NCBI GenBank assembly: GCA_951406725.2 | Contig: OX597822.1 | Coordinates: forward strand, 10,664,001-10,728,000 | Source of the DNA: Octopus vulgaris | Lineage: Eukaryota | Length of the DNA stretch: 64,000 nucleotides | Reading direction: 5' to 3' | Shown here: positions 3,053 through 29,879 of the stretch, piece after piece | Layout of the letters: each line of letters begins with the position of its first letter | Numbering within the stretch: the first letter of the stretch is position 1 | Position numbers and translations under genes: made by a program | Notes under the pieces: model-generated | What the model was told of the DNA's origin: nothing | What the model saw: only the letters and a program-made list of their open reading frames with translations | Database searches by the model: none

Positions 3053-3252
3053 CCCAGTCGTATATATATATATATATATACGACTGGGTTCTTTCAGTTT
3101 CCGTCAACGAAATCCATTCACTTGTTGACCCTAGGCTATAGTAGACTGAACCCGGAACTATGTGGTTGGGAAGCAAGCTTCTCACCACATGCCCACGCCT
3201 GCGCCTATACACACACGCACGCACACACACGCACACACACACACACACACAT

Positions 3253-3333
<81 letters not shown>

Positions 3334-5423
3334 GAAAGAGAGAGAGAGAAAGGGGGCGTGAGTGTGCGAGTAATTGAGAAAGAGAGAAGTTGCCGGAGGG
3401 TAAGTGGTAAGAAGTGTGCTTTGTGACCACCTGTTTCAGGTTCTGTCTCACAGCGCGGCGCTTAGAAATAGTGTGTATTCTGTTTTAGCTCTGGTTAGAT
3501 CTATGTTTCCATTATTCCGCAAAACATGTCTGGTCATGAGGAACTCGGATATAGGTGAGGGACGGTTATTCGTGGGAACAACGACAACAACTGTTAATCA
3601 ACGGATAATACAACTGAGTGATGTGAATGAGGTCATAACTGAACCAACACTCTGTATCGTAACGGTGCGTTTGTGAGTCTAAAAGACATATTAACATTAT
3701 AATGCATATTCTTTTTGTCTTGCAGGGTGTAAATATGCCGCAATTGGAAATAAGACGTTTAAATACTGGTGGTGGAGGGGGTCTGGAAGTACTACTACCT
3801 GTCCAAAAAGAGTAGGGGAAACGCAAGTTGTCCTCGTCAATTGGCATTTATCTAGCTCGCTACTTCGGCCCCTGTAGCTTATCTTTTCCAGTAACGAATC
3901 ATATCCATGTCAACTGACCAACAAAATTCTTAGAAGAAATTGATTTAGACTCCGGACACCTAAAGCCAGAACCTAAGACAGCAGTGAAAATGGACATTTT
4001 GCTGGTACATAGGTTAACTCAGGTGAAAAACCATACATGTATGACATTATATAAAGAATATTTTCTCAAACTGGATGCCATATAAAAATAAAAACCTATC
4101 TTTGAACTGGCTGAATAAATCGGGTCTAAATAAAGCTGCAGAAATACCAGAATTTACCATGTTGGGATACGCCACCCCTAATTAATATATTATCAAAAAT
4201 ATGCACAATTCTACATTACAGTATAGAAAATAAAATTGCTTACGTGGATCATTTCTTGAAAGAATATACCGTATTTATATTGAAGCCAATACGAAATTCA
4301 AGAAAATATTCTTAGAGACGCAGTAATTTAGCAAAGCTGCACTACATCACCTTATCACCAAATTTCAGTTGCTTCAAGTAAAACATTGCCCAGATACTTA
4401 TATTAACTTGTGGTTGTTCCAGAAAGTAACACTGCGAAACTTTTATCTAAATTTATCTTACAAACAACCATAAAACACATAATACCCTTGTTATCAATCT
4501 TGGCGACAGAAATGACAATCGTGTACTAATTAACCAATAATTAACCAAAAGCAAAAAGCAAAATGACAACACAAGTGGCAAATAGTTTTGATAAGAAAAA
4601 TCTCATAGGATATTTGTGTGTAATCTTTTATTTGTTTCAGTCATTAGACTTCGGCCATGCTGGGGCAACCCCTTGAAGAGATTTTAATCAGACGAATCGA
4701 CTCCGTAACTTTTTTTAAACCTGGCATTTAATCTATCAGTTTATTTTGCAGAACCTCTACTTTTACGAGGAGGTAAACAAACCAGCACCGGTAGTCAAGC
4801 TGTGTGCAAAGTGGACAAACACGCGCGCGCGCGCGTACACGCATATATATGACAGGAGGCTCATTTCAGTTTCCGTCAACCAAATCTACTCACAAGGCTT
4901 TGGTCGGCCTGAGGCTATAGTAGAAGACACTTGCTGAAGGTACCACATAGTGCGATTGAACCCAGAGCCACATGGTTGAGAAGCAAGCTTCTTACCAGAC
5001 ATCCTGCGCCTATATATAATCTTTTTACTCACTAAAGTAGATTGCTTAGTTCCTCTGCTCGTTAATGACTCATTGTTGTCTTTCCTTGCTTTCAGTTAAT
5101 ATTTTAATGTCTTGGCAGCAAAGATTTTATGGCGATTTTAGGAGAAATATACTTCTAAAATCTAATAGAGTCGAGAATCCCTCATCCAAATTTTACGGGA
5201 CAGAAATTATCGCGAAATTCGGATTTTCGGATTTCAGAATAATTTGGTAGTTGCATCTATAAAATGCGCTGTCTTGGGAGACGCGTCTAATAGATGTGGA
5301 ATCGATAGGAAACCAAAGGCATTACACCGACCAAACTGCTGAACTAAGAAAATAGGCACACCACTCCACAAAAAATGCCTCGCATGGCATTTAAAGAATG
5401 TGTCAGTTGCCTTATTTATGACA

Positions 5424-6167: not shown

Positions 6168-7083
6168 ATGTATGTGCGTGCATATGTTTGTCTGTGTTTG
6201 TCTCCCCAACATCGCTTGACAATCGATGCTGGTGTATTTACGTGTCTGTAACTTAGCGGTTCGGCAAAAAGAGACTGATAGATTAAGTACTAGGCTTACA
6301 AAGAATAAGTCCCGGGGTCGATTTGCTCGACTAAAGGCGGTACTCCAGCATGGCCGCAGTCAAATGACTGAAACAAGTAAAAGAGTAAAAGAATTAAAGA
6401 GTAACGAAAATGTTTCGTTGAGTGTTGAAAACAACCCTCTTCGATCATCGATCTTTTGAAACTAAAATGGCAGATAAAGCAACGAGGAAGACTTTACATC
6501 ATTGATTGACATTTTAGAAATAGCAGCTAAATCTCTCTTTACTCATACTTCTTATCGTCACAAAAGAAGGACATATTAGATACGTTATGTTAGAATTAAA
6601 AACAGATGGTCACGGATGGAATGTTTTGCATAATGTCTACTCGTATAGTGTTGATTCCAAGTTAAATAACAACAGCAAAAAATCATCATCATCATATTCA
6701 ACAGCAACGAATACAACAGTAGCAACATCAACAGAAAGGTCAACAACAAAAAAAAAAAACCAACACCAAATGAAATTTAATTAATAAAATTAAGGAGACT
6801 TTTAAAAATATATAAACTAGTTTCATAAAAATTAAATATGCAGATATATCACATTTCTGCTTTTTGTTGATTTGATTTAAACACATTTCAAATTAATTTT
6901 CATGTCAACTAGTTTATCGCTAATTAGATTAGATTGAATTAGTATTAAATTAAATTATTTAAAATTTAATTTAAAGTTCAGCCACAGAGAATAAAGTTGT
7001 AGTAACAAATAGTTCTCTGTAGCTCTCTCATATTGTATCTATCTACCAACAGATCTAGCCATCAGTACATACATACTTACATA

Positions 7084-7214: not shown

Positions 7215-7360
7215 TAAACTGTCCGATGAACGGCAACGGGAAACTCAGAGTAACAGGTTTTGCTGAATTTTCTGCTGCTTTAAATAAAGCATATTACTCT
7301 ACCACTGGTATTTGAGTACCCTTTTTCCCACCTTGTTTCACATTTATGTGTTTACTCCGG
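7215..7360 (+). mobile_element. 3' tail of a second PLE family with a hammerhead-like motif (7219-7256)
   Basis: CTGT-CCGATGA-A-CG-GCAA-CG-G-GAAA-CTCAGAG-TA-ACAG, then AATAAA, ending directly in (TA)n. Lies tail-to-tail with the large array. Confidence 0.55.
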
Positions 7361-7432
7361 TATATATATATATATATATGAAAAAACAAGTAAAAAATAG
7401 AAAATGCTAAAATAATTTTATAGTGAACATTT

Positions 7433-7470
7433 CAGTACCGGTTTCGGTCATTTTGAGACCTTTTCAACTG
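7433..7470 (-). ncRNA. Minimal type I hammerhead ribozyme, U3-A8 variant (unit 1)
   Basis: Sense strand reads CAG-UUGAAAA-GGUC-UCAAAAU-GACC-GAAA-CCGG-UA-CUG: stem I CAG/CUG, stem II GGUC/GACC, palindromic ACCGGU stem III, GUA cleavage triplet. Confidence 0.8.
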
Positions 7471-7801
7471 TAACGATTAAATAATTAAATTTAGAAAAAT
7501 TAGAAGAAAAGTTTTTTTAAAAGAATATTTCTATAGTAGTGTTCAGATTTAAGTGGCATTCTGCCTTTCTCTGACTCCCTTGTTTGCACTTGTGTGTTCG
7601 AGGTAGTTGTGAGTTCTTGGTAGGGTAGTAGAGGGAAGGCTGGTGAGGAAAGGGGGTGGGAGAATCTGGGAGTGCCCTGATGGTCGTATTTTGAATGGTC
7701 AGTGGCGGCTGGCAGTCTCAGTTCAATTCAGGATTGTTTATAGAATTAGCGTAGGTGTTATACTAAAAAACATTAGTGACAAACTTAAGGGGTAGGGGGT
7801 G

Positions 7802-8074
7802 GAGAAGAAGAAGAAGAAGAAGAAGAAGAAGAAGAAGAAGAAGAAGAAGAAGAAGAAGAAGGAGAAGGAGAAGATGATGGTGATGGTGGTGATGATTATG
7901 ACGACGATGATGATGATAACGATGATGAAGAAGAAGAAGAAGAAGAAGAAGAAGAAGAAGAAGAAGAAGAAGAAGAAGAAGAAGAAGAAGAAGAAGAAGG
8001 AGAAGGAGAAGATGGTGGTGATGATGATGACGCCGATGATGATGATAACGATGATGATGAAGAAGAAGAAGAAG
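7802..8074 (+). repeat. Compound (GAA)n/(GAT)n triplet tract in the PLE 3' UTR (present in every unit and in the solo copy)
   Basis: Directly visible. Repeat-length differences here account for most of the variation between units. Confidence 0.95.
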
Positions 8075-8208
8075 AAAAAAACAGAGAAGGGAGAATATGA
8101 ATGGGTGTAAATATAGCTATGAAGGGGCTGATTAGTAATGGATTCTATGGAGTGTAGTATTTGTGTGTGTATATATATTTTTTTCTTTTATTCTAAAGTT
8201 GAGGTATA

Positions 8209-10563
8209 TTAATTGTTTGTCGTAGACCCGTTAAGAAGTGGCTTGTATTTTGTAATAAAGAGATTTTCTTTACTTATTCTTTGTCTCGAGGTTGTATCGT
8301 CCCTAAATTGGTAGAGGGGGAAAATTCTGAAGTTTGGTGTTTTTTTGTTGGCGCAAGTATCTATGTGTTGGCTAAAAGCTATTTTTCTGTTTTGGGGAAT
8401 TTTTATCTGGGATCTGTGCAGGGCCATTCGTTTACGCAAACCATTTTTTGTTTGGCCTATGTACTGCTCTTGACACCCGGAGCAGGTTAGTGAGTATATT
8501 AGGTTCTCCGAAGCACATGTGAAGTTGCTTTTCACTGTAAACCGTTGTCCCTGTTTGAAGGAGAACTCCGAACCCTCGATTAGATAGTCGCATATCCCGC
8601 AATTGGGTCTTCCACATTTTTTTACTGTCGGCTTCTGTGTTGAAGAGTGAATTCGGGCTTGTGTAAGGAGACTTTTCATGGATCTAGGCTGTCTTTTGCT
8701 TTTTATGATCGTGTGTGTTTGGAGGATTGTGTTCATTCTGTGGTCTTTTTTTAGGAGGGGTATGTTGTGGAGGATGGTGTCGAAGGCTTCGTTATTGAGA
8801 GGGTTGTGTGTGGAGATGTATGGTAAGGCTTTTGGTTGTAAGTTTTTCTTTGATTTGGGATGTCTCAGTTCCTTGATGTTAAGTTGAAGGGCACGTTGAA
8901 TGCACTTGTCAATAAGTGAAGGTGGATAGTTCCTGGTGATTAGGGTATCTTTTAGTTCTTGTAGTCGTGTGTCTCTGGTGTTTGCGTTAGAGACTATAGT
9001 GCATATCCTTTTTGCTAGATTGAAGGGGATATTCATCCTGGTGTGTCTGGGGTGGCATGAATTGAATGGAAGATATTGCTTAGAGTCTGTAGGCTTATAG
9101 TATATGTCTGTTTCTATTATATTATTAGCTTTCTTAATGAGGATATCGAGGAAGGGGAGTTGTTGTTGGCTATATTCCATCGTGAATTGGATGTTTACGT
9201 CCAGTCCGTTTAAAATTTTCTGGAATTCTATGAGTTTTTCTATATTTTTATGCCAAAGGATGAAACAGTCATCTAGATATCTCTTCCAGTTGTTTTCTAT
9301 GTAGATGGAGAAAGGGCTGCCATATCTTTCTAGAACCTTACGATACAGACTGATCTCTAGGTATCCTATGACTAGGTTGGCAAAGGAGGGGGCCATTCGT
9401 GTACCCATCGCAGTCCCCGATTTTTGTCGGTAGAAGTTGTCATTGAAGGCGAAGAAGTTATTTTCCAGGATGAATTTAACCCCTTCTATCACAAATTCTT
9501 TTTTGATGCGGTGTGGTAGTTCGTTGGCGTGATTCTCTAGCCAGAATTGGATTGCCTCTAGTCCTAGGTTGTGGGGGATATTGGAGTAGAGGTTGACTAC
9601 ATCGAAGGATACCAGTATGGTGTTTTTGTTTATAGTATTCGGTAGGTGATTGAGCATATCTAAGTCGTCCCTTATATAGCTTTTGACATGTTTGAGGAGT
9701 GGTTTTAACAGGGTGTCTAAAAAGTTACTGAGGCGGTGGGTTTCGCATGCGGGACCTGCTATTATGGGTCTCAATTTGAGGTCATTAGGATTAGGGACTT
9801 TAATTATTTTGTCTGTAGCTATCTTGCATGCGTTGCTTATTTTTTCACTTTTGTGGATCTTAGGTATACCGTAGAATTGGCTAGTTTTACTTGTGAAATT
9901 GGTCATATAATCATATTCTTTGTCGGTGAGCCCTGCTTTGTATGGGTTTAATATGGATTTTAGTTCCCTCATTATTTTTTGTTGACTGTAGTTTTGTGCC
10001 TTTTCATAGTATCTTGTGTCTTCCAGCATAGAAAGTACCAAAGTTATGTAAAATGTCGTATCCATTAAGACAACAGCACTCCCTTTATCGGCCTCTTTGA
10101 TTGTTATTGTTTTATCTAGTTTTAATTTGTTCAACTCAGCCCATTCTTTTTTGCTGAAGTTTGGTTTGTGTTTTTGTTTGTGCATATGTTGATATGGGTA
10201 ATTTGATATGTGGTCACAGAAATCATCAAGTGTTTTATTCTTACCTTTCGAGGGGGTGTAGTTACTCCTATTTCTGGCTAACGATTCGTCCTCGTTGTAT
10301 TTATCGTATAGCTCCTCAGTAAGTCTTAATTTTCTGCAGAATTCTGCGATGTCTTCTTTCATTTCATTGTAGTTGGGGTGTTGTGGGGTGGGTGTAAACT
10401 TGAGTCCTTTGGAAAGTATGTTTATTTGGTTTGCTGTTAGTTCCTTGTGAGTTAGATTAATAATTTTTATTACTTTTGGTTCCTCCTGCTTGTTTGGTGC
10501 TATCTTGTGTCTCTGTGTTTGCGTATTGGGTCTAAAAAATGAATGCGGTGGTTGGGACGGTAG
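8209..10563 (-). CDS. PLE ORF2: reverse transcriptase + Cys linker + GIY-YIG endonuclease (Neptune-like), unit 1; frame open from 10563, first AUG at 10362
   Basis: RT motifs: ADKG, SFDVVNLYSNIP, QKSGTAMGTRMAPSFANL, RYLDD, LPFLDI, YYKPT, SCHP. Linker CGRPNCGIC. Endonuclease NLIYSLTCSGCQEQYIGQT...RMALH...QH. Manual translation upstream of the AUG gives IINLTHKELTANQINILSKGLKFTPTP with no stop until 10564-10566. Confidence 0.95.
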   Translation of the reverse strand, partial: LPSQPPHSFFRPNTQTQRHKIAPNKQEEPKVIKIINLTHKELTANQINILSKGLKFTPTPQHPNYNEMKEDIAEFCRKLRLTEELYDKYNEDESLARNRSNYTPSKGKNKTLDDFCDHISNYPYQHMHKQKHKPNFSKKEWAELNKLKLDKTITIKEADKGSAVVLMDTTFYITLVLSMLEDTRYYEKAQNYSQQKIMRELKSILNPYKAGLTDKEYDYMTNFTSKTSQFYGIPKIHKSEKISNACKIATDKIIKVPNPNDLKLRPIIAGPACETHRLSNFLDTLLKPLLKHVKSYIRDDLDMLNHLPNTINKNTILVSFDVVNLYSNIPHNLGLEAIQFWLENHANELPHRIKKEFVIEGVKFILENNFFAFNDNFYRQKSGTAMGTRMAPSFANLVIGYLEISLYRKVLERYGSPFSIYIENNWKRYLDDCFILWHKNIEKLIEFQKILNGLDVNIQFTMEYSQQQLPFLDILIKKANNIIETDIYYKPTDSKQYLPFNSCHPRHTRMNIPFNLAKRICTIVSNANTRDTRLQELKDTLITRNYPPSLIDKCIQRALQLNIKELRHPKSKKNLQPKALPYISTHNPLNNEAFDTILHNIPLLKKDHRMNTILQTHTIIKSKRQPRSMKSLLTQARIHSSTQKPTVKKCGRPNCGICDYLIEGSEFSFKQGQRFTVKSNFTCASENLIYSLTCSGCQEQYIGQTKNGLRKRMALHRSQIKIPQNRKIAFSQHIDTCANKKTPNFRIFPLYQFRDDTTSRQRISKENLFITKYKPLLNGSTTNN

Positions 10564-11735
10564 CTAGTATATAGTTGTTCTTTGTTGATTAGGGGTCTCC
10601 TGTTGTGATTTGTGGTGTGTGTTCTTGGAGCAGTATTGAGGAGAGCATCCCGATATCCCATATTCGGGTGTGGTGTTCTAGGAGGCCTTCGTTGGTAATC
10701 ATTGCAAGTGGTGTGGGTTTGTTGTGCATGGTTGTTTAACCGGTTAATGGGACGAAGATTTCGTTGGTAACTCCTTTGGGTGGGGATGAGGTTGCAGTGT
10801 CTATGCTGTGGGTGTTGATTTATCCTTTCTCTGCTTGAAGTGGGGGTATTCCTGATATTGTATCGCTGGCTGCTTACAGAGTTGGGGTTAGGTCCTGTAT
10901 TCTTTTTTTGATAGTAGTGAAGGTTCCGATTTTTAGACGGGTGTGTATCGGTGTTTGGGTGTTGTTTTGGTTTTCTTATTTTCTGGAAAGGGTTGTTGGA
11001 GGCGTGCTCTGTTTGAAAGACGGCTTCATAGTCTGAGAACCAAGTGGCGCTTTTCTCCCAGCGTTGGAGAGATTTTAGTTCTTCTTTTTCACAGTCCTCT
11101 TTCCATAGTTTGGAGAACTTCTCTTGATCTGGGCCTTGGGTCATTTTGCGAATTTCTTCGTTGATATCTTCATCGGTGGATTTTATTTTATCCTCATTCG
11201 TTTGGGCCCTCAATTTCAGAAGTTCTATTTCCATTTTCATTTTTTCCAGTGCCATTCTCTCCCTGAGGTGTCTTTGTGTTTCAGGTTCTTCTGTAATAGC
11301 TTTGAACTGGAATTTACGTGGGAGGATTAACGGGGTCCGGTTGAGCCATTTTTCGTATATATCCGCTTTGTTGTTGTTTTGGATCATCTTCCAAAAGGCG
11401 AACTTTCTATCTCTGAGTGATTTGTTCCATTGTGGTATTATGTGGTGTTTCATTTGGTATGTTGTTAGAGTATTGATCCCATATATTGACGCGTTTGGAG
11501 GTCCTTGGTTAGCGTTGTTAGAGAAAAATGTTCTAATTGTTTCGCATAAGTTTCCAAGGTTTTCGACAATTTCGGAGGTTGTATTTTTCGTATCTGTTTC
11601 TTCATTGTTCTCTCGATTGGGTTGAAGTGTCGAGTCGAATTTGTTAAAAAAAGTTGACAAATTTGTGTTGATTTTCTTGAGTTCTTTCAGTATTTCTTCG
11701 TTTATGGAGGTGATTGTGTCTGTTTTTGTCGGCAT
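10500..11735 (-). CDS. PLE ORF1: ~411-aa coiled-coil protein with basic low-complexity C-terminus (unit 1)
   Basis: Long ORF; the track starts at GTG 11786 and the first AUG is 11735. It has helical E/K-rich segments (RERMALEKMKMEIELLKLRAQTNEDKIK) and an R/N/H/P-rich tail, and is identical in unit 2. Confidence 0.85.
   Translation of the reverse strand: MPTKTDTITSINEEILKELKKINTNLSTFFNKFDSTLQPNRENNEETDTKNTTSEIVENLGNLCETIRTFFSNNANQGPPNASIYGINTLTTYQMKHHIIPQWNKSLRDRKFAFWKMIQNNNKADIYEKWLNRTPLILPRKFQFKAITEEPETQRHLRERMALEKMKMEIELLKLRAQTNEDKIKSTDEDINEEIRKMTQGPDQEKFSKLWKEDCEKEELKSLQRWEKSATWFSDYEAVFQTEHASNNPFQKIRKPKQHPNTDTHPSKNRNLHYYQKKNTGPNPNSVSSQRYNIRNTPTSSRERINQHPQHRHCNLIPTQRSYQRNLRPINRLNNHAQQTHTTCNDYQRRPPRTPHPNMGYRDALLNTAPRTHTTNHNRRPLINKEQLYTSYRPNHRIHFLDPIRKHRDTR
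10533..10539 (-). promoter_or_regulatory. Putative -1 ribosomal frameshift slippery site U_UUU_UUA (also 14966-14972 and 19386-19392)
   Basis: ORF1 codons CAU UUU UUA GAC place X_XXY_YYZ in the correct register. A -1 slip enters the RT-EN frame (R-P-N-T-Q...). Confidence 0.75.
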
Positions 11736-11855
11736 TTTCTGTATCTCGTGTGGGTTAATGATATGTATAAGGGTGAAAAGGAACACACGAGTTGATATAT
11801 ATGAAAAAACAAGTAAAAAATAGAAAATGCTAAAATAATTTTATAGTGAACATTT

Positions 11856-11893
11856 CAGTACCGGTTTCGGTCATTTTGAGACCTTTTCAACTG
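11856..11893 (-). ncRNA. Minimal hammerhead ribozyme, U3-A8 variant (unit 2)
   Basis: Identical to 7433-7470. Confidence 0.8.
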
Positions 11894-12641
11894 TAACGAT
11901 TAAATAATTAAATTTAGAAAAATTAGAAGAAAAGTTTTTTTAAAAGAATATTTCTATAGTAGTGTTCAGATTTAAGTGGCATTCTGCCTTTCTCTGACTC
12001 CCTTGTTTGCACTTGTGTGTTCGAGGTAGTTGTGAGTTCTTGGTAGGGTAGTAGAGGGAAGGCTGGTGAGGAAAGGGGGTGGGAGAATCTGGGAGTGCCC
12101 TGATGGTCGTATTTTGAATGGTCAGTGGCGGCTGGCAGTCTCAGTTCAATTCAGGATTGTTTATAGAATTAGCGTAGGTGTTATACTAAAAAACATTAGT
12201 GACAAACTTAAGGGGTAGGGGGTGGAAGAAGAAGAAGAAGAAGAAGAAGAAGAAGAAGAAGAAGAAGAAGAAGAAGAAGAAGAAGAAGGAGAAGGAGAAG
12301 ATGATGGTGATGGTGGTGATGATTATGACGACGATGATGATGATAACGATGATGAAGAAGAAGAAGAAGAAGAAGAAGAAGAAGAAGAAGAAGAAGAAGA
12401 AGAAGAAGAAGAAGAAGAAGAAGAAGAAGAAGGAGAAGGAGAAGATGGTGGTGATGATGATGACGCCGATGATGATGATAACGATGATGATGAAGAAGAA
12501 GAAGAAGAAAAAAACAGAGAAGGGAGAATATGAATGGGTGTAAATATAGCTATGAAGGGGCTGATTAGTAATGGATTCTATGGAGTGTAGTATTTGTGTG
12601 TGTATATATATTTTTTTCTTTTATTCTAAAGTTGAGGTATA

Positions 12642-14996
12642 TTAATTGTTTGTCGTAGACCCGTTAAGAAGTGGCTTGTATTTTGTAATAAAGAGATTTT
12701 CTTTACTTATTCTTTGTCTCGAGGTTGTATCGTCCCTAAATTGGTAGAGGGGGAAAATTCTGAAGTTTGGTGTTTTTTTGTTGGCGCAAGTATCTATGTG
12801 TTGGCTAAAAGCTATTTTTCTGTTTTGGGGAATTTTTATCTGGGATCTGTGCAGGGCCATTCGTTTACGCAAACCATTTTTTGTTTGGCCTATGTACTGC
12901 TCTTGACACCCGGAGCAGGTTAGTGAGTATATTAGGTTCTCCGAAGCACATGTGAAGTTGCTTTTCACTGTAAACCGTTGTCCCTGTTTGAAGGAGAACT
13001 CCGAACCCTCGATTAGATAGTCGCATATCCCGCAATTGGGTCTTCCACATTTTTTTACTGTCGGCTTCTGTGTTGAAGAGTGAATTCGGGCTTGTGTAAG
13101 GAGACTTTTCATGGATCTAGGCTGTCTTTTGCTTTTTATGATCGTGTGTGTTTGGAGGATTGTGTTCATTCTGTGGTCTTTTTTTAGGAGGGGTATGTTG
13201 TGGAGGATGGTGTCGAAGGCTTCGTTATTGAGAGGGTTGTGTGTGGAGATGTATGGTAAGGCTTTTGGTTGTAAGTTTTTCTTTGATTTGGGATGTCTCA
13301 GTTCCTTGATGTTAAGTTGAAGGGCACGTTGAATGCACTTGTCAATAAGTGAAGGTGGATAGTTCCTGGTGATTAGGGTATCTTTTAGTTCTTGTAGTCG
13401 TGTGTCTCTGGTGTTTGCGTTAGAGACTATAGTGCATATCCTTTTTGCTAGATTGAAGGGGATATTCATCCTGGTGTGTCTGGGGTGGCATGAATTGAAT
13501 GGAAGATATTGCTTAGAGTCTGTAGGCTTATAGTATATGTCTGTTTCTATTATATTATTAGCTTTCTTAATGAGGATATCGAGGAAGGGGAGTTGTTGTT
13601 GGCTATATTCCATCGTGAATTGGATGTTTACGTCCAGTCCGTTTAAAATTTTCTGGAATTCTATGAGTTTTTCTATATTTTTATGCCAAAGGATGAAACA
13701 GTCATCTAGATATCTCTTCCAGTTGTTTTCTATGTAGATGGAGAAAGGGCTGCCATATCTTTCTAGAACCTTACGATACAGACTGATCTCTAGGTATCCT
13801 ATGACTAGGTTGGCAAAGGAGGGGGCCATTCGTGTACCCATCGCAGTCCCCGATTTTTGTCGGTAGAAGTTGTCATTGAAGGCGAAGAAGTTATTTTCCA
13901 GGATGAATTTAACCCCTTCTATCACAAATTCTTTTTTGATGCGGTGTGGTAGTTCGTTGGCGTGATTCTCTAGCCAGAATTGGATTGCCTCTAGTCCTAG
14001 GTTGTGGGGGATATTGGAGTAGAGGTTGACTACATCGAAGGATACCAGTATGGTGTTTTTGTTTATAGTATTCGGTAGGTGATTGAGCATATCTAAGTCG
14101 TCCCTTATATAGCTTTTGACATGTTTGAGGAGTGGTTTTAACAGGGTGTCTAAAAAGTTACTGAGGCGGTGGGTTTCGCATGCGGGACCTGCTATTATGG
14201 GTCTCAATTTGAGGTCATTAGGATTAGGGACTTTAATTATTTTGTCTGTAGCTATCTTGCATGCGTTGCTTATTTTTTCACTTTTGTGGATCTTAGGTAT
14301 ACCGTAGAATTGGCTAGTTTTACTTGTGAAATTGGTCATATAATCATATTCTTTGTCGGTGAGCCCTGCTTTGTATGGGTTTAATATGGATTTTAGTTCC
14401 CTCATTATTTTTTGTTGACTGTAGTTTTGTGCCTTTTCATAGTATCTTGTGTCTTCCAGCATAGAAAGTACCAAAGTTATGTAAAATGTCGTATCCATTA
14501 AGACAACAGCACTCCCTTTATCGGCCTCTTTGATTGTTATTGTTTTATCTAGTTTTAATTTGTTCAACTCAGCCCATTCTTTTTTGCTGAAGTTTGGTTT
14601 GTGTTTTTGTTTGTGCATATGTTGATATGGGTAATTTGATATGTGGTCACAGAAATCATCAAGTGTTTTATTCTTACCTTTCGAGGGGGTGTAGTTACTC
14701 CTATTTCTGGCTAACGATTCGTCCTCGTTGTATTTATCGTATAGCTCCTCAGTAAGTCTTAATTTTCTGCAGAATTCTGCGATGTCTTCTTTCATTTCAT
14801 TGTAGTTGGGGTGTTGTGGGGTGGGTGTAAACTTGAGTCCTTTGGAAAGTATGTTTATTTGGTTTGCTGTTAGTTCCTTGTGAGTTAGATTAATAATTTT
14901 TATTACTTTTGGTTCCTCCTGCTTGTTTGGTGCTATCTTGTGTCTCTGTGTTTGCGTATTGGGTCTAAAAAATGAATGCGGTGGTTGGGACGGTAG
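12642..14996 (-). CDS. PLE ORF2 RT-GIY-YIG (unit 2); first AUG at 14795
   Basis: Translation identical to unit 1. Confidence 0.95.
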   Translation of the reverse strand, partial: LPSQPPHSFFRPNTQTQRHKIAPNKQEEPKVIKIINLTHKELTANQINILSKGLKFTPTPQHPNYNEMKEDIAEFCRKLRLTEELYDKYNEDESLARNRSNYTPSKGKNKTLDDFCDHISNYPYQHMHKQKHKPNFSKKEWAELNKLKLDKTITIKEADKGSAVVLMDTTFYITLVLSMLEDTRYYEKAQNYSQQKIMRELKSILNPYKAGLTDKEYDYMTNFTSKTSQFYGIPKIHKSEKISNACKIATDKIIKVPNPNDLKLRPIIAGPACETHRLSNFLDTLLKPLLKHVKSYIRDDLDMLNHLPNTINKNTILVSFDVVNLYSNIPHNLGLEAIQFWLENHANELPHRIKKEFVIEGVKFILENNFFAFNDNFYRQKSGTAMGTRMAPSFANLVIGYLEISLYRKVLERYGSPFSIYIENNWKRYLDDCFILWHKNIEKLIEFQKILNGLDVNIQFTMEYSQQQLPFLDILIKKANNIIETDIYYKPTDSKQYLPFNSCHPRHTRMNIPFNLAKRICTIVSNANTRDTRLQELKDTLITRNYPPSLIDKCIQRALQLNIKELRHPKSKKNLQPKALPYISTHNPLNNEAFDTILHNIPLLKKDHRMNTILQTHTIIKSKRQPRSMKSLLTQARIHSSTQKPTVKKCGRPNCGICDYLIEGSEFSFKQGQRFTVKSNFTCASENLIYSLTCSGCQEQYIGQTKNGLRKRMALHRSQIKIPQNRKIAFSQHIDTCANKKTPNFRIFPLYQFRDDTTSRQRISKENLFITKYKPLLNGSTTNN

Positions 14997-16168
14997 CTAG
15001 TATATAGTTGTTCTTTGTTGATTAGGGGTCTCCTGTTGTGATTTGTGGTGTGTGTTCTTGGAGCAGTATTGAGGAGAGCATCCCGATATCCCATATTCGG
15101 GTGTGGTGTTCTAGGAGGCCTTCGTTGGTAATCATTGCAAGTGGTGTGGGTTTGTTGTGCATGGTTGTTTAACCGGTTAATGGGACGAAGATTTCGTTGG
15201 TAACTCCTTTGGGTGGGGATGAGGTTGCAGTGTCTATGCTGTGGGTGTTGATTTATCCTTTCTCTGCTTGAAGTGGGGGTATTCCTGATATTGTATCGCT
15301 GGCTGCTTACAGAGTTGGGGTTAGGTCCTGTATTCTTTTTTTGATAGTAGTGAAGGTTCCGATTTTTAGACGGGTGTGTATCGGTGTTTGGGTGTTGTTT
15401 TGGTTTTCTTATTTTCTGGAAAGGGTTGTTGGAGGCGTGCTCTGTTTGAAAGACGGCTTCATAGTCTGAGAACCAAGTGGCGCTTTTCTCCCAGCGTTGG
15501 AGAGATTTTAGTTCTTCTTTTTCACAGTCCTCTTTCCATAGTTTGGAGAACTTCTCTTGATCTGGGCCTTGGGTCATTTTGCGAATTTCTTCGTTGATAT
15601 CTTCATCGGTGGATTTTATTTTATCCTCATTCGTTTGGGCCCTCAATTTCAGAAGTTCTATTTCCATTTTCATTTTTTCCAGTGCCATTCTCTCCCTGAG
15701 GTGTCTTTGTGTTTCAGGTTCTTCTGTAATAGCTTTGAACTGGAATTTACGTGGGAGGATTAACGGGGTCCGGTTGAGCCATTTTTCGTATATATCCGCT
15801 TTGTTGTTGTTTTGGATCATCTTCCAAAAGGCGAACTTTCTATCTCTGAGTGATTTGTTCCATTGTGGTATTATGTGGTGTTTCATTTGGTATGTTGTTA
15901 GAGTATTGATCCCATATATTGACGCGTTTGGAGGTCCTTGGTTAGCGTTGTTAGAGAAAAATGTTCTAATTGTTTCGCATAAGTTTCCAAGGTTTTCGAC
16001 AATTTCGGAGGTTGTATTTTTCGTATCTGTTTCTTCATTGTTCTCTCGATTGGGTTGAAGTGTCGAGTCGAATTTGTTAAAAAAAGTTGACAAATTTGTG
16101 TTGATTTTCTTGAGTTCTTTCAGTATTTCTTCGTTTATGGAGGTGATTGTGTCTGTTTTTGTCGGCAT
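14933..16168 (-). CDS. PLE ORF1 coiled-coil protein (unit 2)
   Basis: Translation identical to unit 1. Confidence 0.85.
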   Translation of the reverse strand: MPTKTDTITSINEEILKELKKINTNLSTFFNKFDSTLQPNRENNEETDTKNTTSEIVENLGNLCETIRTFFSNNANQGPPNASIYGINTLTTYQMKHHIIPQWNKSLRDRKFAFWKMIQNNNKADIYEKWLNRTPLILPRKFQFKAITEEPETQRHLRERMALEKMKMEIELLKLRAQTNEDKIKSTDEDINEEIRKMTQGPDQEKFSKLWKEDCEKEELKSLQRWEKSATWFSDYEAVFQTEHASNNPFQKIRKPKQHPNTDTHPSKNRNLHYYQKKNTGPNPNSVSSQRYNIRNTPTSSRERINQHPQHRHCNLIPTQRSYQRNLRPINRLNNHAQQTHTTCNDYQRRPPRTPHPNMGYRDALLNTAPRTHTTNHNRRPLINKEQLYTSYRPNHRIHFLDPIRKHRDTR

Positions 16169-16288
16169 TTTCTGTATCTCGTGTGGGTTAATGATATGTA
16201 TAAGGGTGAAAAGGAACACACGAGTTGATATATATGAAAAAACAAGTAAAAAATAGAAAATGCTAAAATAATTTTATAGTGAACATTT

Positions 16289-16326
16289 CAGTACCGGTTT
16301 CGGTCATTTTGAGACCTTTTCAACTG
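16289..16326 (-). ncRNA. Minimal hammerhead ribozyme, U3-A8 variant (unit 3)
   Basis: Identical to 7433-7470. Confidence 0.8.
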
Positions 16327-17062
16327 TAACGATTAAATAATTAAATTTAGAAAAATTAGAAGAAAAGTTTTTTTAAAAGAATATTTCTATAGTAGTGTTC
16401 AGATTTAAGTGGCATTCTGCCTTTCTCTGACTCCCTTGTTTGCACTTGTGTGTTCGAGGTAGTTGTGAGTTCTTGGTAGGGTAGTAGAGGGAAGGCTGGT
16501 GAGGAAAGGGGGTGGGAGAATCTGGGAGTGCCCTGATGGTCGTATTTTGAATGGTCAGTGGCGGCTGGCAGTCTCAGTTCAATTCAGGATTGTTTATAGA
16601 ATTAGCGTAGGTGTTATACTAAAAAACATTAGTGACAAACTTAAGGGGTAGGGGGTGGAGAAGAAGAAGAAGAAGAAGAAGAAGAAGAAGAAGAAGAAGA
16701 AGAAGAAGGAGAAGGAGAAGATGATGGTGATGGTGGTGATGATTATGACGACGATGATGATGATAACGATGATGAAGAAGAAGAAGAAGAAGAAGAAGAA
16801 GAAGAAGAAGAAGAAGAAGAAGAAGAAGAAGAAGAAGAAGAAGAAGAAGAAGATGGTGGTGATGATGGTGGTGATGATGATGACGCCGATGATGATGATA
16901 ACGATGATGATGAAGAAGAAGAAGAAGAAAAAAACAGAGAAGGGAGAATATGAATGGGTGTAAATATAGCTATGAAGGGGCTGATTAGTAATGGATTCTA
17001 TGGAGTGTAGTATTTGTGTGTGTATATATATTTTTTTCTTTTTATTCTAAAGTTGAGGTATA

Positions 17063-20000
17063 TTAATTGTTTGTCGTAGACCCGTTAAGAAGTGGCTTGT
17101 ATTTTGTAATAAAGAGATTTTCTTTACTTATTCTTTGTCTCGAGGTTGTATCGTCCCTAAATTGGTAGAGGGGGAAAATTCTGAAGTTTGGTGTTTTTTT
17201 GTTGGCGCAAGTATCTATGTGTTGGCTAAAAGCTATTTTTCTGTTTTGGGGAATTTTTATCTGGGATCTGTGCAGGGCCATTCGTTTACGCAAACCATTT
17301 TTTGTTTGGCCTATGTACTGCTCTTGACACCCGGAGCAGGTTAGTGAGTATATTAGGTTCTCCGAAGCACATGTGAAGTTGCTTTTCACTGTAAACCGTT
17401 GTCCCTGTTTGAAGGAGAACTCCGAACCCTCGATTAGATAGTCGCATATCCCGCAATTGGGTCTTCCACATTTTTTTACTGTCGGCTTCTGTGTTGAAGA
17501 GTGAATTCGGGCTTGTGTAAGGAGACTTTTCATGGATCTAGGCTGTCTTTTGCTTTTTATGATCGTGTGTGTTTGGAGGATTGTGTTCATTCTGTGGTCT
17601 TTTTTTAGGAGGGGTATGTTGTGGAGGATGGTGTCGAAGGCTTCGTTATTGAGAGGGTTGTGTGTGGAGATGTATGGTAAGGCTTTTGGTTGTAAGTTTT
17701 TCTTTGATTTGGGATGTCTCAGTTCCTTGATGTTAAGTTGAAGGGCACGTTGAATGCACTTGTCAATAAGTGAAGGTGGATAGTTCCTGGTGATTAGGGT
17801 ATCTTTTAGTTCTTGTAGTCGTGTGTCTCTGGTGTTTGCGTTAGAGACTATAGTGCATATCCTTTTTGCTAGATTGAAGGGGATATTCATCCTGGTGTGT
17901 CTGGGGTGGCATGAATTGAATGGAAGATATTGCTTAGAGTCTGTAGGCTTATAGTATATGTCTGTTTCTATTATATTATTAGCTTTCTTAATGAGGATAT
18001 CGAGGAAGGGGAGTTGTTGTTGGCTATATTCCATCGTGAATTGGATGTTTACGTCCAGTCCGTTTAAAATTTTCTGGAATTCTATGAGTTTTTCTATATT
18101 TTTATGCCAAAGGATGAAACAGTCATCTAGATATCTCTTCCAGTTGTTTTCTATGTAGATGGAGAAAGGGCTGCCATATCTTTCTAGAACCTTACGATAC
18201 AGACTGATCTCTAGGTATCCTATGACTAGGTTGGCAAAGGAGGGGGCCATTCGTGTACCCATCGCAGTCCCCGATTTTTGTCGGTAGAAGTTGTCATTGA
18301 AGGCGAAGAAGTTATTTTCCAGGATGAATTTAACCCCTTCTATCACAAATTCTTTTTTGATGCGGTGTGGTAGTTCGTTGGCGTGATTCTCTAGCCAGAA
18401 TTGGATTGCCTCTAGTCCTAGGTTGTGGGGGATATTGGAGTAGAGGTTGACTACATCGAAGGATACCAGTATGGTGTTTTTGTTTATAGTATTCGGTAGG
18501 TGATTGAGCATATCTAAGTCGTCCCTTATATAGCTTTTGACATGTTTGAGGAGTGGTTTTAACAGGGTGTCTAAAAAGTTACTGAGGCGGTGGGTTTCGC
18601 ATGCGGGACCTGCTATTATGGGTCTCAATTTGAGGTCATTAGGATTAGGGACTTTAATTATTTTGTCTGTAGCTATCTTGCATGCGTTGCTTATTTTTTC
18701 ACTTTTGTGGATCTTAGGTATACCGTAGAATTGGCTAGTTTTACTTGTGAAATTGGTCATATAATCATATTCTTTGTCGGTGAGCCCTGCTTTGTATGGG
18801 TTTAATATGGATTTTAGTTCCCTCATTATTTTTTGTTGACTGTAGTTTTGTGCCTTTTCATAGTATCTTGTGTCTTCCAGCATAGAAAGTACCAAAGTTA
18901 TGTAAAATGTCGTATCCATTAAGACAACAGCACTCCCTTTATCGGCCTCTTTGATTGTTATTGTTTTATCTAGTTTTAATTTGTTCAACTCAGCCCATTC
19001 TTTTTTGCTGAAGTTTGGTTTGTGTTTTTGTTTGTGCATATGTTGATATGGGTAATTTGATATGTGGTCACAGAAATCATCAAGTGTTTTATTCTTACCT
19101 TTCGAGGGGTGTAGTTACTCCTATTTCTGGCTAACGATTCGTCCTCGTTGTATTTATCGTATAGCTCCTCAGTAAGTCTTAATTTTCTGCAGAATTCTGC
19201 GATGTCTTCTTTCATTTCATTGTAGTTGGGGTGTTGTGGGGTGGGTGTAAACTTGAGTCCTTTGGAAAGTATGTTTATTTGGTTTGCTGTTAGTTCCTTG
19301 TGAGTTAGATTAATAATTTTTATTACTTTTGGTTCCTCCTGCTTGTTTGGTGCTATCTTGTGTCTCTGTGTTTGCGTATTGGGTCTAAAAAATGAATGCG
19401 GTGGTTGGGACGGTAGCTAGTATATAGTTGTTCTTTGTTGATTAGGGGTCTCCTGTTGTGATTTGTGGTGTGTGTTCTTGGAGCAGTATTGAGGAGAGCA
19501 TCCCGATATCCCATATTCGGGTGTGGTGTTCTAGGAGGCCTTCGTTGGTAATCATTGCAAGTGGTGTGGGTTTGTTGTGCATGGTTGTTTAACCGGTTAA
19601 TGGGACGAAGATTTCGTTGGTAACTCCTTTGGGTGGGGATGAGGTTGCAGTGTCTATGCTGTGGGTGTTGATTTATCCTTTCTCTGCTTGAAGTGGGGGT
19701 ATTCCTGATATTGTATCGCTGGCTGCTTACAGAGTTGGGGTTAGGTCCTGTATTCTTTTTTTGATAGTAGTGAAGGTTCCGATTTTTAGACGGGTGTGTA
19801 TCGGTGTTTGGGTGTTGTTTTGGTTTTCTTATTTTCTGGAAAGGGTTGTTGGAGGCGTGCTCTGTTTGAAAGACGGCTTCATAGTCTGAGAACCAAGTGG
19901 CGCTTTTCTCCCAGCGTTGGAGAGATTTTAGTTCTTCTTTTTCACAGTCCTCTTTCCATAGTTTGGAGAACTTCTCTTGATCTGGGCCTTGGGTCATTTT

Positions 20001-20587
20001 GCGAATTTCTTCGTTGATATCTTCATCGGTGGATTTTATTTTATCCTCATTCGTTTGGGCCCTCAATTTCAGAAGTTCTATTTCCATTTTCATTTTTTCC
20101 AGTGCCATTCTCTCCCTGAGGTGTCTTTGTGTTTCAGGTTCTTCTGTAATAGCTTTGAACTGGAATTTACGTGGGAGGATTAACGGGGTCCGGTTGAGCC
20201 ATTTTTCGTATATATCCGCTTTGTTGTTGTTTTGGATCATCTTCCAAAAGGCGAACTTTCTATCTCTGAGTGATTTGTTCCATTGTGGTATTATGTGGTG
20301 TTTCATTTGGTATGTTGTTAGAGTATTGATCCCATATATTGACGCGTTTGGAGGTCCTTGGTTAGCGTTGTTAGAGAAAAATGTTCTAATTGTTTCGCAT
20401 AAGTTTCCAAGGTTTTCGACAATTTCGGAGGTTGTATTTTTCGTATCTGTTTCTTCATTGTTCTCTCGATTGGGTTGAAGTGTCGAGTCGAATTTGTTAA
20501 AAAAGTTGACAAATTTGTGTTGATTTTCTTGAGTTCTTTCAGTATTTCTTCGTTTATGGAGGTGATTGTGTCTGTTTTTGTCGGCAT
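17063..20587 (-). pseudogene. PLE ORF1/ORF2 of unit 3, each broken by a 1-bp homopolymer deletion
   Basis: G5 to G4 near 19106-19109 splits ORF2, and A7 to A6 near 20499-20504 splits ORF1. The unit otherwise matches the others, so these could be consensus errors. Confidence 0.7.
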
Positions 20588-20707
20588 TTTCTGTATCTCG
20601 TGTGGGTTAATGATATGTATAAGGGTGAAAAGGAACACACGAGTTGATATATATGAAAAAACAAGTAAAAAATAGAAAATGCTAAAATAATTTTATAGTG
20701 AACATTT

Positions 20708-20745
20708 CAGTACCGGTTTCGGTCATTTTGAGACCTTTTCAACTG
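20708..20745 (-). ncRNA. Minimal hammerhead ribozyme, U3-A8 variant (truncated unit 4)
   Basis: Identical to 7433-7470. Confidence 0.8.
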
Positions 20746-21486
20746 TAACGATTAAATAATTAAATTTAGAAAAATTAGAAGAAAAGTTTTTTTAAAAGAA
20801 TATTTCTATAGTAGTGTTCAGATTTAAGTGGCATTCTGCCTTTCTCTGACTCCCTTGTTTGCACTTGTGTGTTCGAGGTAGTTGTGAGTTCTTGGTAGGG
20901 TAGTAGAGGGAAGGCTGGTGAGGAAAGGGGGTGGGAGAATCTGGGAGTGCCCTGATGGTCGTATTTTGAATGGTCAGTGGCGGCTGGCAGTCTCAGTTCA
21001 ATTCAGGATTGTTTATAGAATTAGCGTAGGTGTTATACTAAAAAACATTAGTGACAAACTTAAGGGGTAGGGGGTGGAGAAGAAGAAGAAGAAGAAGAAG
21101 AAGAAGAAGAAGAAGAAGAAGAAGAAGGAGAAGGAGAAGATGATGGTGATGGTGGTGATGATTATGACGACGATGATGATGATAACGATGATGAAGAAGA
21201 AGAAGAAGAAGAAGAAGAAGAAGAAGAAGAAGAAGAAGAAGAAGAAGAAGAAGAAGAAGAAGAAGAAGAAGAAGGAGAAGGAGATGATGGTGGTGATGAT
21301 GATGACGCCGATGATGATGATAAAGATGATGATGAAGAAGAAGAAGAAGAAGAAAAAAACAGAGAAGGGAGAATATGAATGGGTGTAAATATAGCTATGA
21401 AGGGGCTGATTAGTAATGGATTCTATGGAGTGTAGTATTTGTGTGTGTATATATATTTTTTTCTTTTATTCTAAAGTTGAGGTATA

Positions 21487-21981
21487 TTAATTGTTTGTCG
21501 TAGACCCGTTAAGAAGTGGCTTGTATTTTGTAATAAAGAGATTTTCTTTACTTATTCTTTGTCTCGAGGTTGTATCGTCCCTAAATTGGTAGAGGGGGAA
21601 AATTCTGAAGTTTGGTGTTTTTTTGTTGGCGCAAGTATCTATGTGTTGGCTAAAAGCTATTTTTCTGTTTTGGGGAATTTTTATCTGGGATCTGTGCAGG
21701 GCCATTCGTTTACGCAAACCATTTTTTGTTTGGCCTATGTACTGCTCTTGACACCCGGAGCAGGTTAGTGAGTATATTAGGTTCTCCGAAGCACATGTGA
21801 AGTTGCTTTTCACTGTAAACCGTTGTCCCTGTTTGAAGGAGAACTCCGAACCCTCGATTAGATAGTCGCATATCCCGCAATTGGGTCTTCCACATTTTTT
21901 TACTGTCGGCTTCTGTGTTGAAGAGTGAATTCGGGCTTGTGTAAGGAGACTTTTCATGGATCTAGGCTGTCTTTTGCTTTT

Positions 21982-21984
<3 letters not shown>
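21487..21984 (-). pseudogene. 5'-truncated ORF2 fragment (Cys linker + GIY-YIG only) in unit 4
   Basis: 156-aa ORF identical to the ORF2 C-terminus; identity ends at TTTTAT, running into (TA)n. Confidence 0.9.
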
Positions 21985-22015
<31 letters not shown>

Positions 22016-22479
22016 TAGGTGTGTGTGTATGTGTGTGTGCGTTAATTTTGAAAGAAAATCTTGTCGCATTATTGGTGTAAGTATTTTGAATGTAAGGTAA
22101 AAGAAGCAGTAAGTTTTAATTTTTGTATTTTTCTTTTTCTTTTTTTTTACAATTCATTCAGTAGTGGTTAAATTCGTATCGACTTTTACACTATTAAAAT
22201 GAGTTTAGATCCGATCCATATTACCTACTTCATGCAGTATTAATTCAAAGAGGGGATCTTCGGCAATGGAGGCGGCAAGCATTACTTTTTCTGTCATTGG
22301 AATTGAAGATTTTGCTGTCCGGAAATGCTTACGATGGTTTGCCCAGTATCATTCGGAAAATTTTTCTCTCACAGATTCCCATCCACCTGGATGAACAAGT
22401 CCTGCAAATACTGAGATTCTGAAAACCGTAGCTAGGAAAAAGCCAAAGCAAGCTGTATGAAACAGTTGAATTGAAGTAA

Positions 22480-23270
22480 CACTTAGATCATAATATACCT
22501 TGATGAACTATGAAAAGTGTTTAAAATTGGTCAGTGAGGGCCGCATCTTTTGAGTGCTTTTCAGCTCATTCAAATAGTTGCCCTCTGTTTGTCCTTCAAG
22601 AGTAGACCAACTCCCGAACGTTTCCTGGGTATAATCATCACAAATGATGAAAGGTAAGTTCTCAAAAATCATATCAAACAAGAACAAAAGAAGTTAGAAT
22701 TTAATAAAAAATAAGGCTAATCCACTTCCAAACCTGGACTTGCGCCCGGAAGACCTATGATTAGTGTCTGGTGGGACATGAAGAAGTGTTGAAACAAAAG
22801 GTAACAGTTAATGAGCAGAAGTATTGAAATGTATTGGAAACATTGCGAAGAAATTTGCTAAAAAAGCAACCGCCATTAGCCAATCGTAAGGGAGTGTTGC
22901 TTTTACATGATAATACAAGATTAAATATTGGCCAACTCGCCCAGAAAAGCATTATGGTACTAAATACAGAAGTTTTCTCTCACACTCCTTAGTTTCCTGA
23001 CTTTATAGTATCTCTCTTCTTTTCAGATCATTACTGCGTAATTCAGAAGGAAAACTGTTTATTAATTGCGAACAGGTTAAAAATGACATTGAGCATTTCA
23101 TTGCTTCGAAACCTGAAGAATTTTACGCCTGAGAGATCAACAATTGCCAAATATTTGAAATTATGTTATCAATAAAGGAAAATGCTATCTTGATTAAATG
23201 TTTAAAATAAGACCAAAGAAGGATATATTTCCTTAGAATCCTGAAATGCGAAAGGTCTTCCTTTCAAACC
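22480..23270 (+). mobile_element. Degenerate mariner transposase relic
   Basis: Remnants IITNDE, RKGVLLLHDNTR, HTP*FPDF and FIASKPEEFY resemble mariner motifs (TGDE, HDNARPH, YSPDL). Many stops; boundaries approximate. Confidence 0.65.
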
Positions 23271-27508: not shown

Positions 27509-28011
27509 CAGCAGCAGCAGCAGTAGTTTTACATTTTTAATATTGCAGTTTCGTAAGGTGACGAAAAAGGTGCTAAATGCTGAGTGATATTTCGTCCCTT
27601 TTTACATTCTGAATTCAAAATCCCCTGATGTCTATATTATCTTCCATCCTGTCGGGGTCGACAAAATATGTACCAGTTGAATACTTCCTCCTTCGAAACT
27701 GCTGGTCTTGTGCCAAGATTCAAAAGCAGTGTTTCCGTTTCGCTCTCTGGATGCTCTGCGAGTGAAATTTGTGGTCGTGGCCTCTGTAGAACGCATTACA
27801 ATGTGCAATGCGCTTCTTCGTTTGTTTTTGTAGTATATTCCGTGCGAATGTAGATACCAACTACTGAGTGAATTTTGTAAGTAAAGCATGGAAACTTCCA
27901 AATCTTATATCAAGAGCGATTAGTTGTAATTTATTGCAATTTATTTTCTCCGCTCCTACAAAATGACTTAGAAACAATTGTTTTGTTAAAATTCCCAAAG
28001 ACATTCTTTTC

Positions 28012-28206
<195 letters not shown>

Positions 28207-28377
28207 ATATATATATATATGTATATATTTATATATATATATTATTCCTTTGTACTATCAATACAAGATCAGCAACATCGAACCCAGTATTCAACTGGTA
28301 CATATTTTATCGATAACGAAGGGATGAAATGGATGGCAGCATATACTTATGATATTATATGCATATATATGTACGTA

Positions 28378-28409
<32 letters not shown>

Positions 28410-28445
28410 AACAAAGTCAAAATGCGATAAAATAAAATTAATTAA

Positions 28446-28510
<65 letters not shown>

Positions 28511-29061
28511 TAGATAGATAGATATATATATATAGATATATAGATTTTATATGAACAAAACATTCAGACATAAGGTTTGAAATAAGATGTCACTATAGTT
28601 AATGCCATCTGTGAATAAAATTTAAAATTGATGCCATCAACAGAAGTAACATTTGTGGTTCGTAGGCAAAAAGCATTATTTAGCTATAAGATACAAATTA
28701 GCGCGAACCGTAATTATGCAGGAAAGCATCGTCTTGCTGGAAATAAGAGCTAAAGTCTTAAACCACGGCATATGACCAAGATTACAGAGAAATAACAGTA
28801 GACGAGGAAACGGAAGGAACCTTTACTCGCCTACTGTTATTTCTCTGTTGTGTTGGTGTTTTACAGTGGTTTAATTACGACTTTAGCTCTTATTTCTAGC
28901 CGGTTGATGCTTTTTTGAAACCTTAGGCTTATATATATCTATCTATATATATATATATATATAAATAATATATAAATATATGCATACATATATATTATTT
29001 ATATTATTATAAGATCGAACGCCACGCATCATTTTCCAAGTAAGTTTTATCTATCTGTCTG

Positions 29062-29175
<114 letters not shown>

Positions 29176-29280
29176 GATATTGATAGATAGATAGATAGAT
29201 AGATAGATATGTAAAAGTATACTCATCTAACTATCCATACCTCTTTTTCTGTATATATATATATATATAGGAAAGAGAAG

Positions 29281-29317
<37 letters not shown>

Positions 29318-29582
29318 ACAGAAAGACAGATGGGAGAAATAGTATGTCTATATACCGCCTATATACTACAAGATGTCTTCTTGACATCTTCGCCAAAAAG
29401 AAGAACAAAAAAAATAAGAATCGGGATAGGAACAAAGAACCAAAGTTCAATTATAAAAGAAAAAAAAATCAAGGAAATAAAAAAAAACTATCAATAAACA
29501 AAGAACATTTAGATACACAAATAAAAACAAAGCATGCAGCAACATGTAGCAGCAGCGGCTGCAGCAGTATTATTGGCGATGT

Positions 29583-29648
<66 letters not shown>

Positions 29649-29835: not shown

Positions 29836-29879
<44 letters not shown>

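Follow-up and report, generated by a model that had tools for sequence, protein, structure and literature searches.

A 3.3-unit tandem array of a Neptune-like Penelope retrotransposon in Octopus vulgaris and possible routes to its extra units

How does a Penelope-like element (PLE) come to stand in more than three head-to-tail units at one site in the genome of Octopus vulgaris? The site lies in a window of 64,000 nucleotides (assembly GCA_951406725.2, contig OX597822.1, positions 10,664,001 to 10,728,000 of the forward strand; positions below are those of this window), in which 3.3 units of a young Penelope retrotransposon, Neptune-like on its motifs, form one very young insertion in a (TA)n repeat. 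An earlier note on this DNA had proposed rolling-circle reverse transcription of a circular RNA generated by hammerhead ribozymes. At stake is how PLEs regenerate copies of more than one unit, whether from a circle, from an mRNA of several copies or by template jumps, and the family to which the array belongs, which counts some 40 full-length and hundreds of truncated loci, offers countable markers that separate these models: stop positions, nested variants and differences between arms. We found the array to be real in the assembly, unusually long and of an ordinary kind of element, and the circle mechanism to be already known as a hypothesis. Our preferred answer, held with about as much belief as doubt, is that the 3.3 units were built as DNA, either by gain of units in place or in a source array copied through a multi-unit linear RNA, rather than made via a monomer circle.

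The array and its family

The array as assembled consists of three full units of 4423, 4433 and 4419 bp and a partial copy of 1332 bp, all on the minus strand. Self-BLAST of the window returned it as a single 10.2-kb match at 99.5%, and alignment showed three unit junctions identical to one another, confirming the near-identical head-to-tail units that the earlier note had described. Unit 1, the 3'-most (7378..11800), and Unit 2 (11801..16233), our reference for unit positions, have both reading frames, ORF1 and ORF2, open, while Unit 3 (16234..20652) carries all three 1-bp homopolymer indels of the array, two of them frame-breaking. Upstream stands a 5'-truncated copy or pseudo-long terminal repeat (pseudo-LTR; 20653..21984, unit positions 3095-4433), which meets the (TA)n through AT microhomology. 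Both array ends lie within (TA)n, the target at 7361..7379 on the 3' side and a (TA)n(GA)n remnant at 21983..22017 on the 5' side. Outside the microsatellite of the 3' untranslated region (3' UTR), not one substitution separates the three full units and the partial copy (4043 positions compared); there is also no locus-private substitution, and the array is thus among the youngest copies of its family. The claim that the units differ almost only in repeat length and 1-bp indels therefore held for most of the sequence and broke down inside the compound (CTT)n/(CAT)n block (7803..8075, minus strand), where Unit 3 has a 12-nt variant and the partial copy two point changes. The runs of this block measure 24/19, 26/21, 26/16 and 27/16 in the four copies; a T-to-A change and a 16-repeat run common to Unit 3 and the partial copy might point to stepwise duplication, but they are ambiguous evidence and were left out of the count.

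Each full unit and the partial copy hold a minimal type I hammerhead motif with palindromic helix III and the U3-A8 core variant described in PMC4209133 (7428..7474, 11851-11897, 16284-16330 and 20703-20749, minus strand). The motif was found by hand, with helix covariation judged by eye, and it sits in the pseudo-LTR, as in endonuclease-bearing (EN+) PLEs; Rfam at its gathering threshold gave no hammerhead match. Its predicted cut falls 58 nt inside the 3' end of the element. The core is kept in two sister families (44-52% protein identity), whose helix I and helix II sequences differ. At the unit junction, a hairpin is predicted (11732..11830, minus strand) in which the end of the 3' UTR pairs with the ATG region; it contains 3'-end site A (11800/11801) and, 40 nt on, site B (11761), and recurs in one sister family.

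We surveyed the genome with a junction query (40 scored of 1256 candidates) and an exact unit-start pattern, whose 46 hits fell in 38 loci; all were fetched with one further junction locus, and a mini-array (L067) was left out (n = 38). Partial-tandem insertions, which the earlier note had called common among PLEs, are the rule here: of the 38 loci that have an intact unit start, 37 continue past the upstream hammerhead cut into an upstream copy, and 15 extend into the previous ORF. The usual locus comprises an optional inverted arm, a truncated upstream copy, one full unit and an optional 40-bp tail, and this layout of inverted arm and pseudo-LTR is the textbook PLE form (PMC8969392, PMC3846280). 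The 3' ends fall at unit position 4433 or at +40, both TATA stretches and always abutting (TA)n, and the tail is on exactly one arm in all 29 clear twin-arm loci (four ambiguous loci uncounted). At least two junctions at unit spacing were seen at only three of the 38 loci, namely the array (three), L037/38 (three) and L049/50 (two), where the last unit is cut at 932. The L037/38 array ends at a scaffold gap; beside this 100-N gap lies ~1.5 kb of interstitial (CCCTAA)n (L071/L037, G000:C9:55712591-55714130), and the scaffold join there may be doubtful. One sister family has one two-unit array among 37 start hits, and the other none among 24; a sister-family insertion at L168/L169 (G000:C16:11.40-11.42 Mb) has both arms longer than one 5.8-kb unit. 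Logan contigs covering 8190-12215 rise in depth from 5' to 3' in a DNA run.

The survey of unit numbers and truncation points that the earlier note had suggested thus found run-on to be routine and multi-unit copies rare, and no insertion end in the surveyed family copies mapped to the hammerhead cut. As many as 156 of 160 3' ends read across the cut site without a scar, which is neutral at best for a circle model. The fixed 3' end, the identical junctions and the truncated 5' unit, offered as signs of a rolling circle, are common to ordinary copies of one unit and a fraction, and they would also survive unequal exchange.

Routes to the extra units

Length was the first of the markers. The young subfamily has 387 exact 3' ends, and we retrieved 60 regions that include most of the first 100 in the list; with one off-target region and the complex pieces set aside, 91 ended arms remained, together with 4 that passed a unit (n = 95). 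The first-pass stop rate was ~0.66 per kb and flat with length, and 4/95 arms completed one unit. At this family-average processivity, 0.07-0.1 three-junction loci would be expected, while two of the 38 were seen (P 0.002-0.005), 20-30 times more than predicted, and the expectation for a 14.6-kb cDNA is 0.02-0.08 per genome. Over a far-tail exposure of 18.9 kb there were 3 stops against 12.5 expected (P 0.0015). Second-pass and first-pass survival were not different overall (log-rank p=0.14) or at young loci only (p=0.53), indicating that many templates continue past the junction. Second-pass stops were nevertheless in excess 135-430 nt upstream of the junction (18/37 vs 22/89; Fisher p=0.012), as would be seen if some of the templates were linear and began in the pseudo-LTR. 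Seven of 29 twin loci in the C1-C4 sample have arms equal within 15 nt and look fold-back-like (L072, L091, L092, L095, L107, L115, L123); once these are removed, twin-arm lengths are uncorrelated (rho 0.20, p=0.38), which lends no support to a highly processive subclass.

Sequence variants were the other marker. The array itself, with no unit differences and no private alleles, is uninformative on whether it came from a single monomer. At L037/38, two of the three junction copies have T29, an allele present in 0/73 copies elsewhere; G1891 is in both full units, absent from the inverted arm and in 0/51 elsewhere; and no substitution is unique to one unit. Stepwise duplication or conversion would fit this pattern, as would a source array whose units were unlike. 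At unit position 155 in the L037 extension, what had looked like a shared allele proved to be a 1-bp misalignment and was dropped. L047 combines a full unit bearing T3136 and a 24-repeat run with a partial copy and inverted arm bearing C3136 and 9-10 repeats, which implies a template with unlike units; C3136 was found in 4/86 copies examined, only at L047 and L049. L055 carries an 885-bp tandem duplication with two derived alleles. In a comparison of 17 twin-arm loci, 16 of the differences between arms are private and 5 are shared; six loci have a private allele that both arms carry, and 16 of the 17 are free of clear lineage conflict. The earlier note's picture of templates continuing past the junction was borne out across the family; L037/38 and L047 conflict with a single monomer as template.

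Three further loci were recorded in the same survey. L058 (G000:C27:10.55 Mb) is a chimera in which two subfamilies meet out of register (unit 1618/1839). At L067 (positions 6173-6823; G000:C10:63.4767 Mb), the single locus of its kind, 2.9 tandem copies of a 131-bp unit (unit 4383-4433 + 1-81) lack the hammerhead core, stand with a tail and a normal inverted arm, and are joined 7 nt from the predicted cut. L093 (G000:C2:7.66 Mb) has arms of one twin insertion with markers of different lineages, which suggests two RNA molecules in one event.

We read the excess of three-junction loci, the nested variants of L037/38, the unlike units of L047, the L055 duplication and the stops in the pseudo-LTR zone as favoring units built as DNA. 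We counted on the same side, and for a linear template, the in vitro work on an anole PLE, in which hammerhead mutants did not affect insertion and the model is an mRNA of several copies (PMC11167929). In such a scheme the GIY-YIG domain would nick (TA)n, and the nick would prime inside RNA left intact across the hammerhead site. The reverse transcriptase (RT) would copy slightly more than one unit in ~4-5% of arms, and the long pseudo-LTRs so formed (1.34 kb in the array) would permit unequal exchange; multi-unit loci could then act as sources of multi-unit RNA by long linear read-through. Between its two forms, gain in place by unequal exchange is the likelier, though by itself held with more doubt than belief, and the array being a copy of a multi-unit source RNA is unlikely.

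Several observations weigh against this preferred reading. The main one is age: the multi-unit loci are all among the 13 young loci (3/13), with 0/25 among the older (Fisher p=0.034), and this pattern, together with the absence of private substitutions, favors birth at full length; it fits arrays born long and collapsing later. The array holds no marker of stepwise duplication, and its place among the youngest copies leaves little time for two gains. L037/38 and the two-unit array of the sister family have only 244- and ~140-bp direct repeats with which to start exchange, and several older loci with pseudo-LTRs of 1-2 kb have not expanded. Nested variants could also have arisen by gene conversion once a single long insertion was in place. 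One unit of L037/38 has a 24-repeat run while its neighbor and the inverted arm have 10, a difference easier to explain as RT stutter in a separate pass. Lastly, the statistics depend on two to three loci and take a single stop rate to hold for every event.

The most serious rival is the rolling circle itself, in which paired hammerheads release a 4.4-kb monomer from the transcript, the monomer is closed by ligation and a single RT crosses the junction three times; a circular RNA template for PLEs was already proposed in 2014 (PMC4209133, Discussion). It draws on the hammerhead core kept in three families ~45-52% identical in protein with differing helices I and II, on the passage of 37/38 loci beyond the upstream cut and the recurrence of long pseudo-LTRs in many lineages, on the similar survival in the second pass, on an array without inter-unit or private substitutions, on the restriction of multi-unit arrays to young loci, and on a junction hairpin that requires head-to-tail RNA. 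It must produce a 14.6-kb cDNA, far above the processivity of the family, and it conflicts with the variants of L037/38 and L047 where a single monomer is the template; no insertion end lies at the cut, and the anole element did not require its hammerhead in vitro, nor did any of its RNA reads stop at the cut (PMC11167929). Our tests thus lean against a rolling circle for long arrays, and we regard it as possible, though doubtful and not the best fit to the family data. If it were true, the 2014 proposal would be confirmed; if not, long arrays of Penelope elements persist as DNA and provide weak evidence of RNA circles. Serial template jumps, by which RT on a linear, terminally redundant RNA (pseudo-LTR to tail) would switch three times by homology, each time leaving the 5' end for the 3' repeat of that RNA or of another one, meet the same length problem. 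Template changes do occur in the family (L058, L067, L093) and the excess stops in the pseudo-LTR zone could be failed jumps, but most twin-arm loci lack a clear lineage conflict, six share a locus-private allele between arms, and all three junction crossings in the array are seamless, so that we consider this route quite unlikely.

Two rivals remain. The unit number is that of the assembly, and reads overlapped one unit out of register could have inflated it: all oddities, homopolymer indels and microsatellite variants resembling mixtures with an older allele, are in Unit 3 and the partial copy, and the comparable L037/38 array ends at a scaffold gap. Reads were consulted as Logan contigs (24 listed runs), which drop rare variants, so copy number by allele depth was not used; on 21480-23200, none from four runs bridges the right junction of the array, which is uninformative on unit number. 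Against such an expansion, the window has no N and the flanks are continuous, outside the microsatellite the majority of young copies show 0-1 indels and base quality is therefore high, the four repeat blocks are all different, and independent multi-unit arrays exist, one of them, in a sister family, with both ends assembled. We judge assembly expansion improbable. Successive insertions into the short ATATAT at the element's own junction find precedent in the anole PLE, which cuts its own ORF-pLTR junction in vitro (PMC11167929), and a sister-family copy abuts an array-family copy at L053. The units of the array are identical, however, and yet 1 to 37 substitutions away from all 21 full copies at other loci compared, and the junctions carry no extra TA or truncation scars; self-targeting is hardly credible here.

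The element and its closest counterparts

ORF1 (10500..11735, minus strand; repeated at 14933-16168) encodes 411 aa from its ATG and has no Pfam match. ORF2 (8209..10563, minus strand; repeated at 12642-14996) spans 784 aa from stop to stop and combines an RT bearing DKG and YLDD (PF00078, RVT_1 263-450, E 3.5e-8), a CX4CXXC linker (CGRPNCGIC) and a GIY-YIG domain with CCHH-type residues (LIY..CSGC..YIG, with two Cys between GIY and YIG), the last matching PF01541 at 688-775 with E 3.8e-4, below the curated cut-off. Among 7995 sequences scored, 413 relatives reached E<=1e-100. The ratio of non-synonymous to synonymous rates (dN/dS) from shared variants was 0.32 for ORF1 (12 synonymous, 15 non-synonymous) and 0.12 for ORF2. 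By the motif definitions of PMC8557442 for EN+ PLEs, Neptune and Naiad, the element is Neptune-like, its RT followed by a C-terminal GIY-YIG endonuclease being the EN+ arrangement. Membership in Naiad, which needs an N-terminal GIY-YIG, DKA and no hammerhead, was rejected for an element with a C-terminal GIY-YIG, DKG and a hammerhead. The supported core of the earlier note is thus a Penelope-like element at one (TA)n locus with a conserved hammerhead motif.

The likeness to canonical EN+ PLEs, the Neptune group in particular (PMC8557442; PMC8969392; PMC3846280), extends to RT plus C-terminal GIY-YIG, a CX2-5CxxC linker, DKG and (TA)n targets, as well as to the pseudo-LTR partial tandem, the inverted 5'-truncated arm, the hammerhead in the repeat and an optional tail of 30-40 bp at one end. 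The octopus array differs in holding three complete units. Canonical EN+ elements are also described with one ORF, whereas the octopus element has ORF1 and an overlapping RT frame; two overlapping ORFs were present in 37/37 full copies examined, and no in-frame ORF1-ORF2 fused relative appeared among 2782 longer candidates, which is weak evidence. Among the papers listed by a literature search, none dealt with full-length Penelope tandem arrays and unequal crossing-over, although subscription papers and supplements may hold cases.

PAc, a Poseidon element of the green anole (PMC11167929), likewise starts at two internal sites, which set the tail and lie within or next to a stem-loop where repeat and ORF meet; it also shares the tandem organization and the extension of both strands. 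Its starts are reported as non-homologous to the cut DNA, whereas both octopus sites are TATA stretches matching the (TA)n target, and its hammerhead lies over the start codon, whereas ours is in the 3' UTR and 123 nt ahead of the following ATG. The circular-template model for PLEs (PMC4209133) and animal non-LTR retrozymes (PMC7229834; bioRxiv 10.64898/2026.07.22.740005) resemble the octopus element in having a single type I hammerhead in each tandem unit and copies of more than one unit. Retrozymes, however, are non-coding units of 170-400 nt with circles shown by experiment, while the array unit is 4.4 kb and coding, its circle is a proposal, and its minimal hammerhead is of a kind with low activity in vitro.

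A candidate frameshift and the neighboring repeats

ORF1 and ORF2 overlap by 64 nt, within which an in-frame T TTT TTA (U UUU UUA; 10533..10539, minus strand, also 14966-14972 and 19386-19392) stands in the -1 register, and we regard this heptamer as a candidate programmed -1 frameshift site. It is unchanged in 37/37 full copies and occurs in the two sister families of this genome (18/30 loci intact, the other 12 broken or shifted); in all three families it is followed by G, with GACAC 21 nt downstream, and two of three ORF1 relatives from outside end in FL-x7-DTRW. No stable fold was predicted downstream in the array family (minimum free energy 0 to -3.7 kcal/mol over 50-120 nt, in a model without pseudoknots). 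It is possible that TTTTTTAG acts instead as a splice acceptor at the overlap; Logan contigs from three runs guessed to be RNA, covering 8190-12215, cross both the ORF overlap and the unit junction and show no spliced joint. A frameshift-separated ORF1 is mentioned for some PLE types in the legend of Fig. 1 of PMC8557442, and our literature search found no paper testing one. The conserved candidate is a separate lead and easy to assay.

The frameshift also enters the most far-reaching form of the circle proposal, a 4.4-kb coding RNA circle closed by paired hammerheads, copied 3.3 times in one target-primed reaction by an unusually processive RT, primed at the hairpin TATA sites and with RT made through a structure-free -1 frameshift with GACAC 21 nt downstream. 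We think this combination rather unlikely; if true, the coding circle would be the first autonomous counterpart of retrozyme circles and likely the type of enzyme that spreads them in this genome.

Other repeats share the window. A separate young repeat whose core is hammerhead-like (CCGATGA; 971 candidates) is represented by a 3' fragment (7216-7360, plus strand) that sits tail-to-tail with the array across the same (TA)n. An older 5'-truncated copy of the array family (39087-41535, plus strand) is 92% identical, with a frame open over 578 aa; it was rejected as the inverted arm of the array on account of this identity, its distance of 17 kb and its own TA flanks. Positions 22200-23200 hold what we take to resemble a decayed mariner-type transposase, and 28000-36000, 44800-49000 and 59200-62000 contain many degenerate repeat tracts, 65-85% similar to each other.

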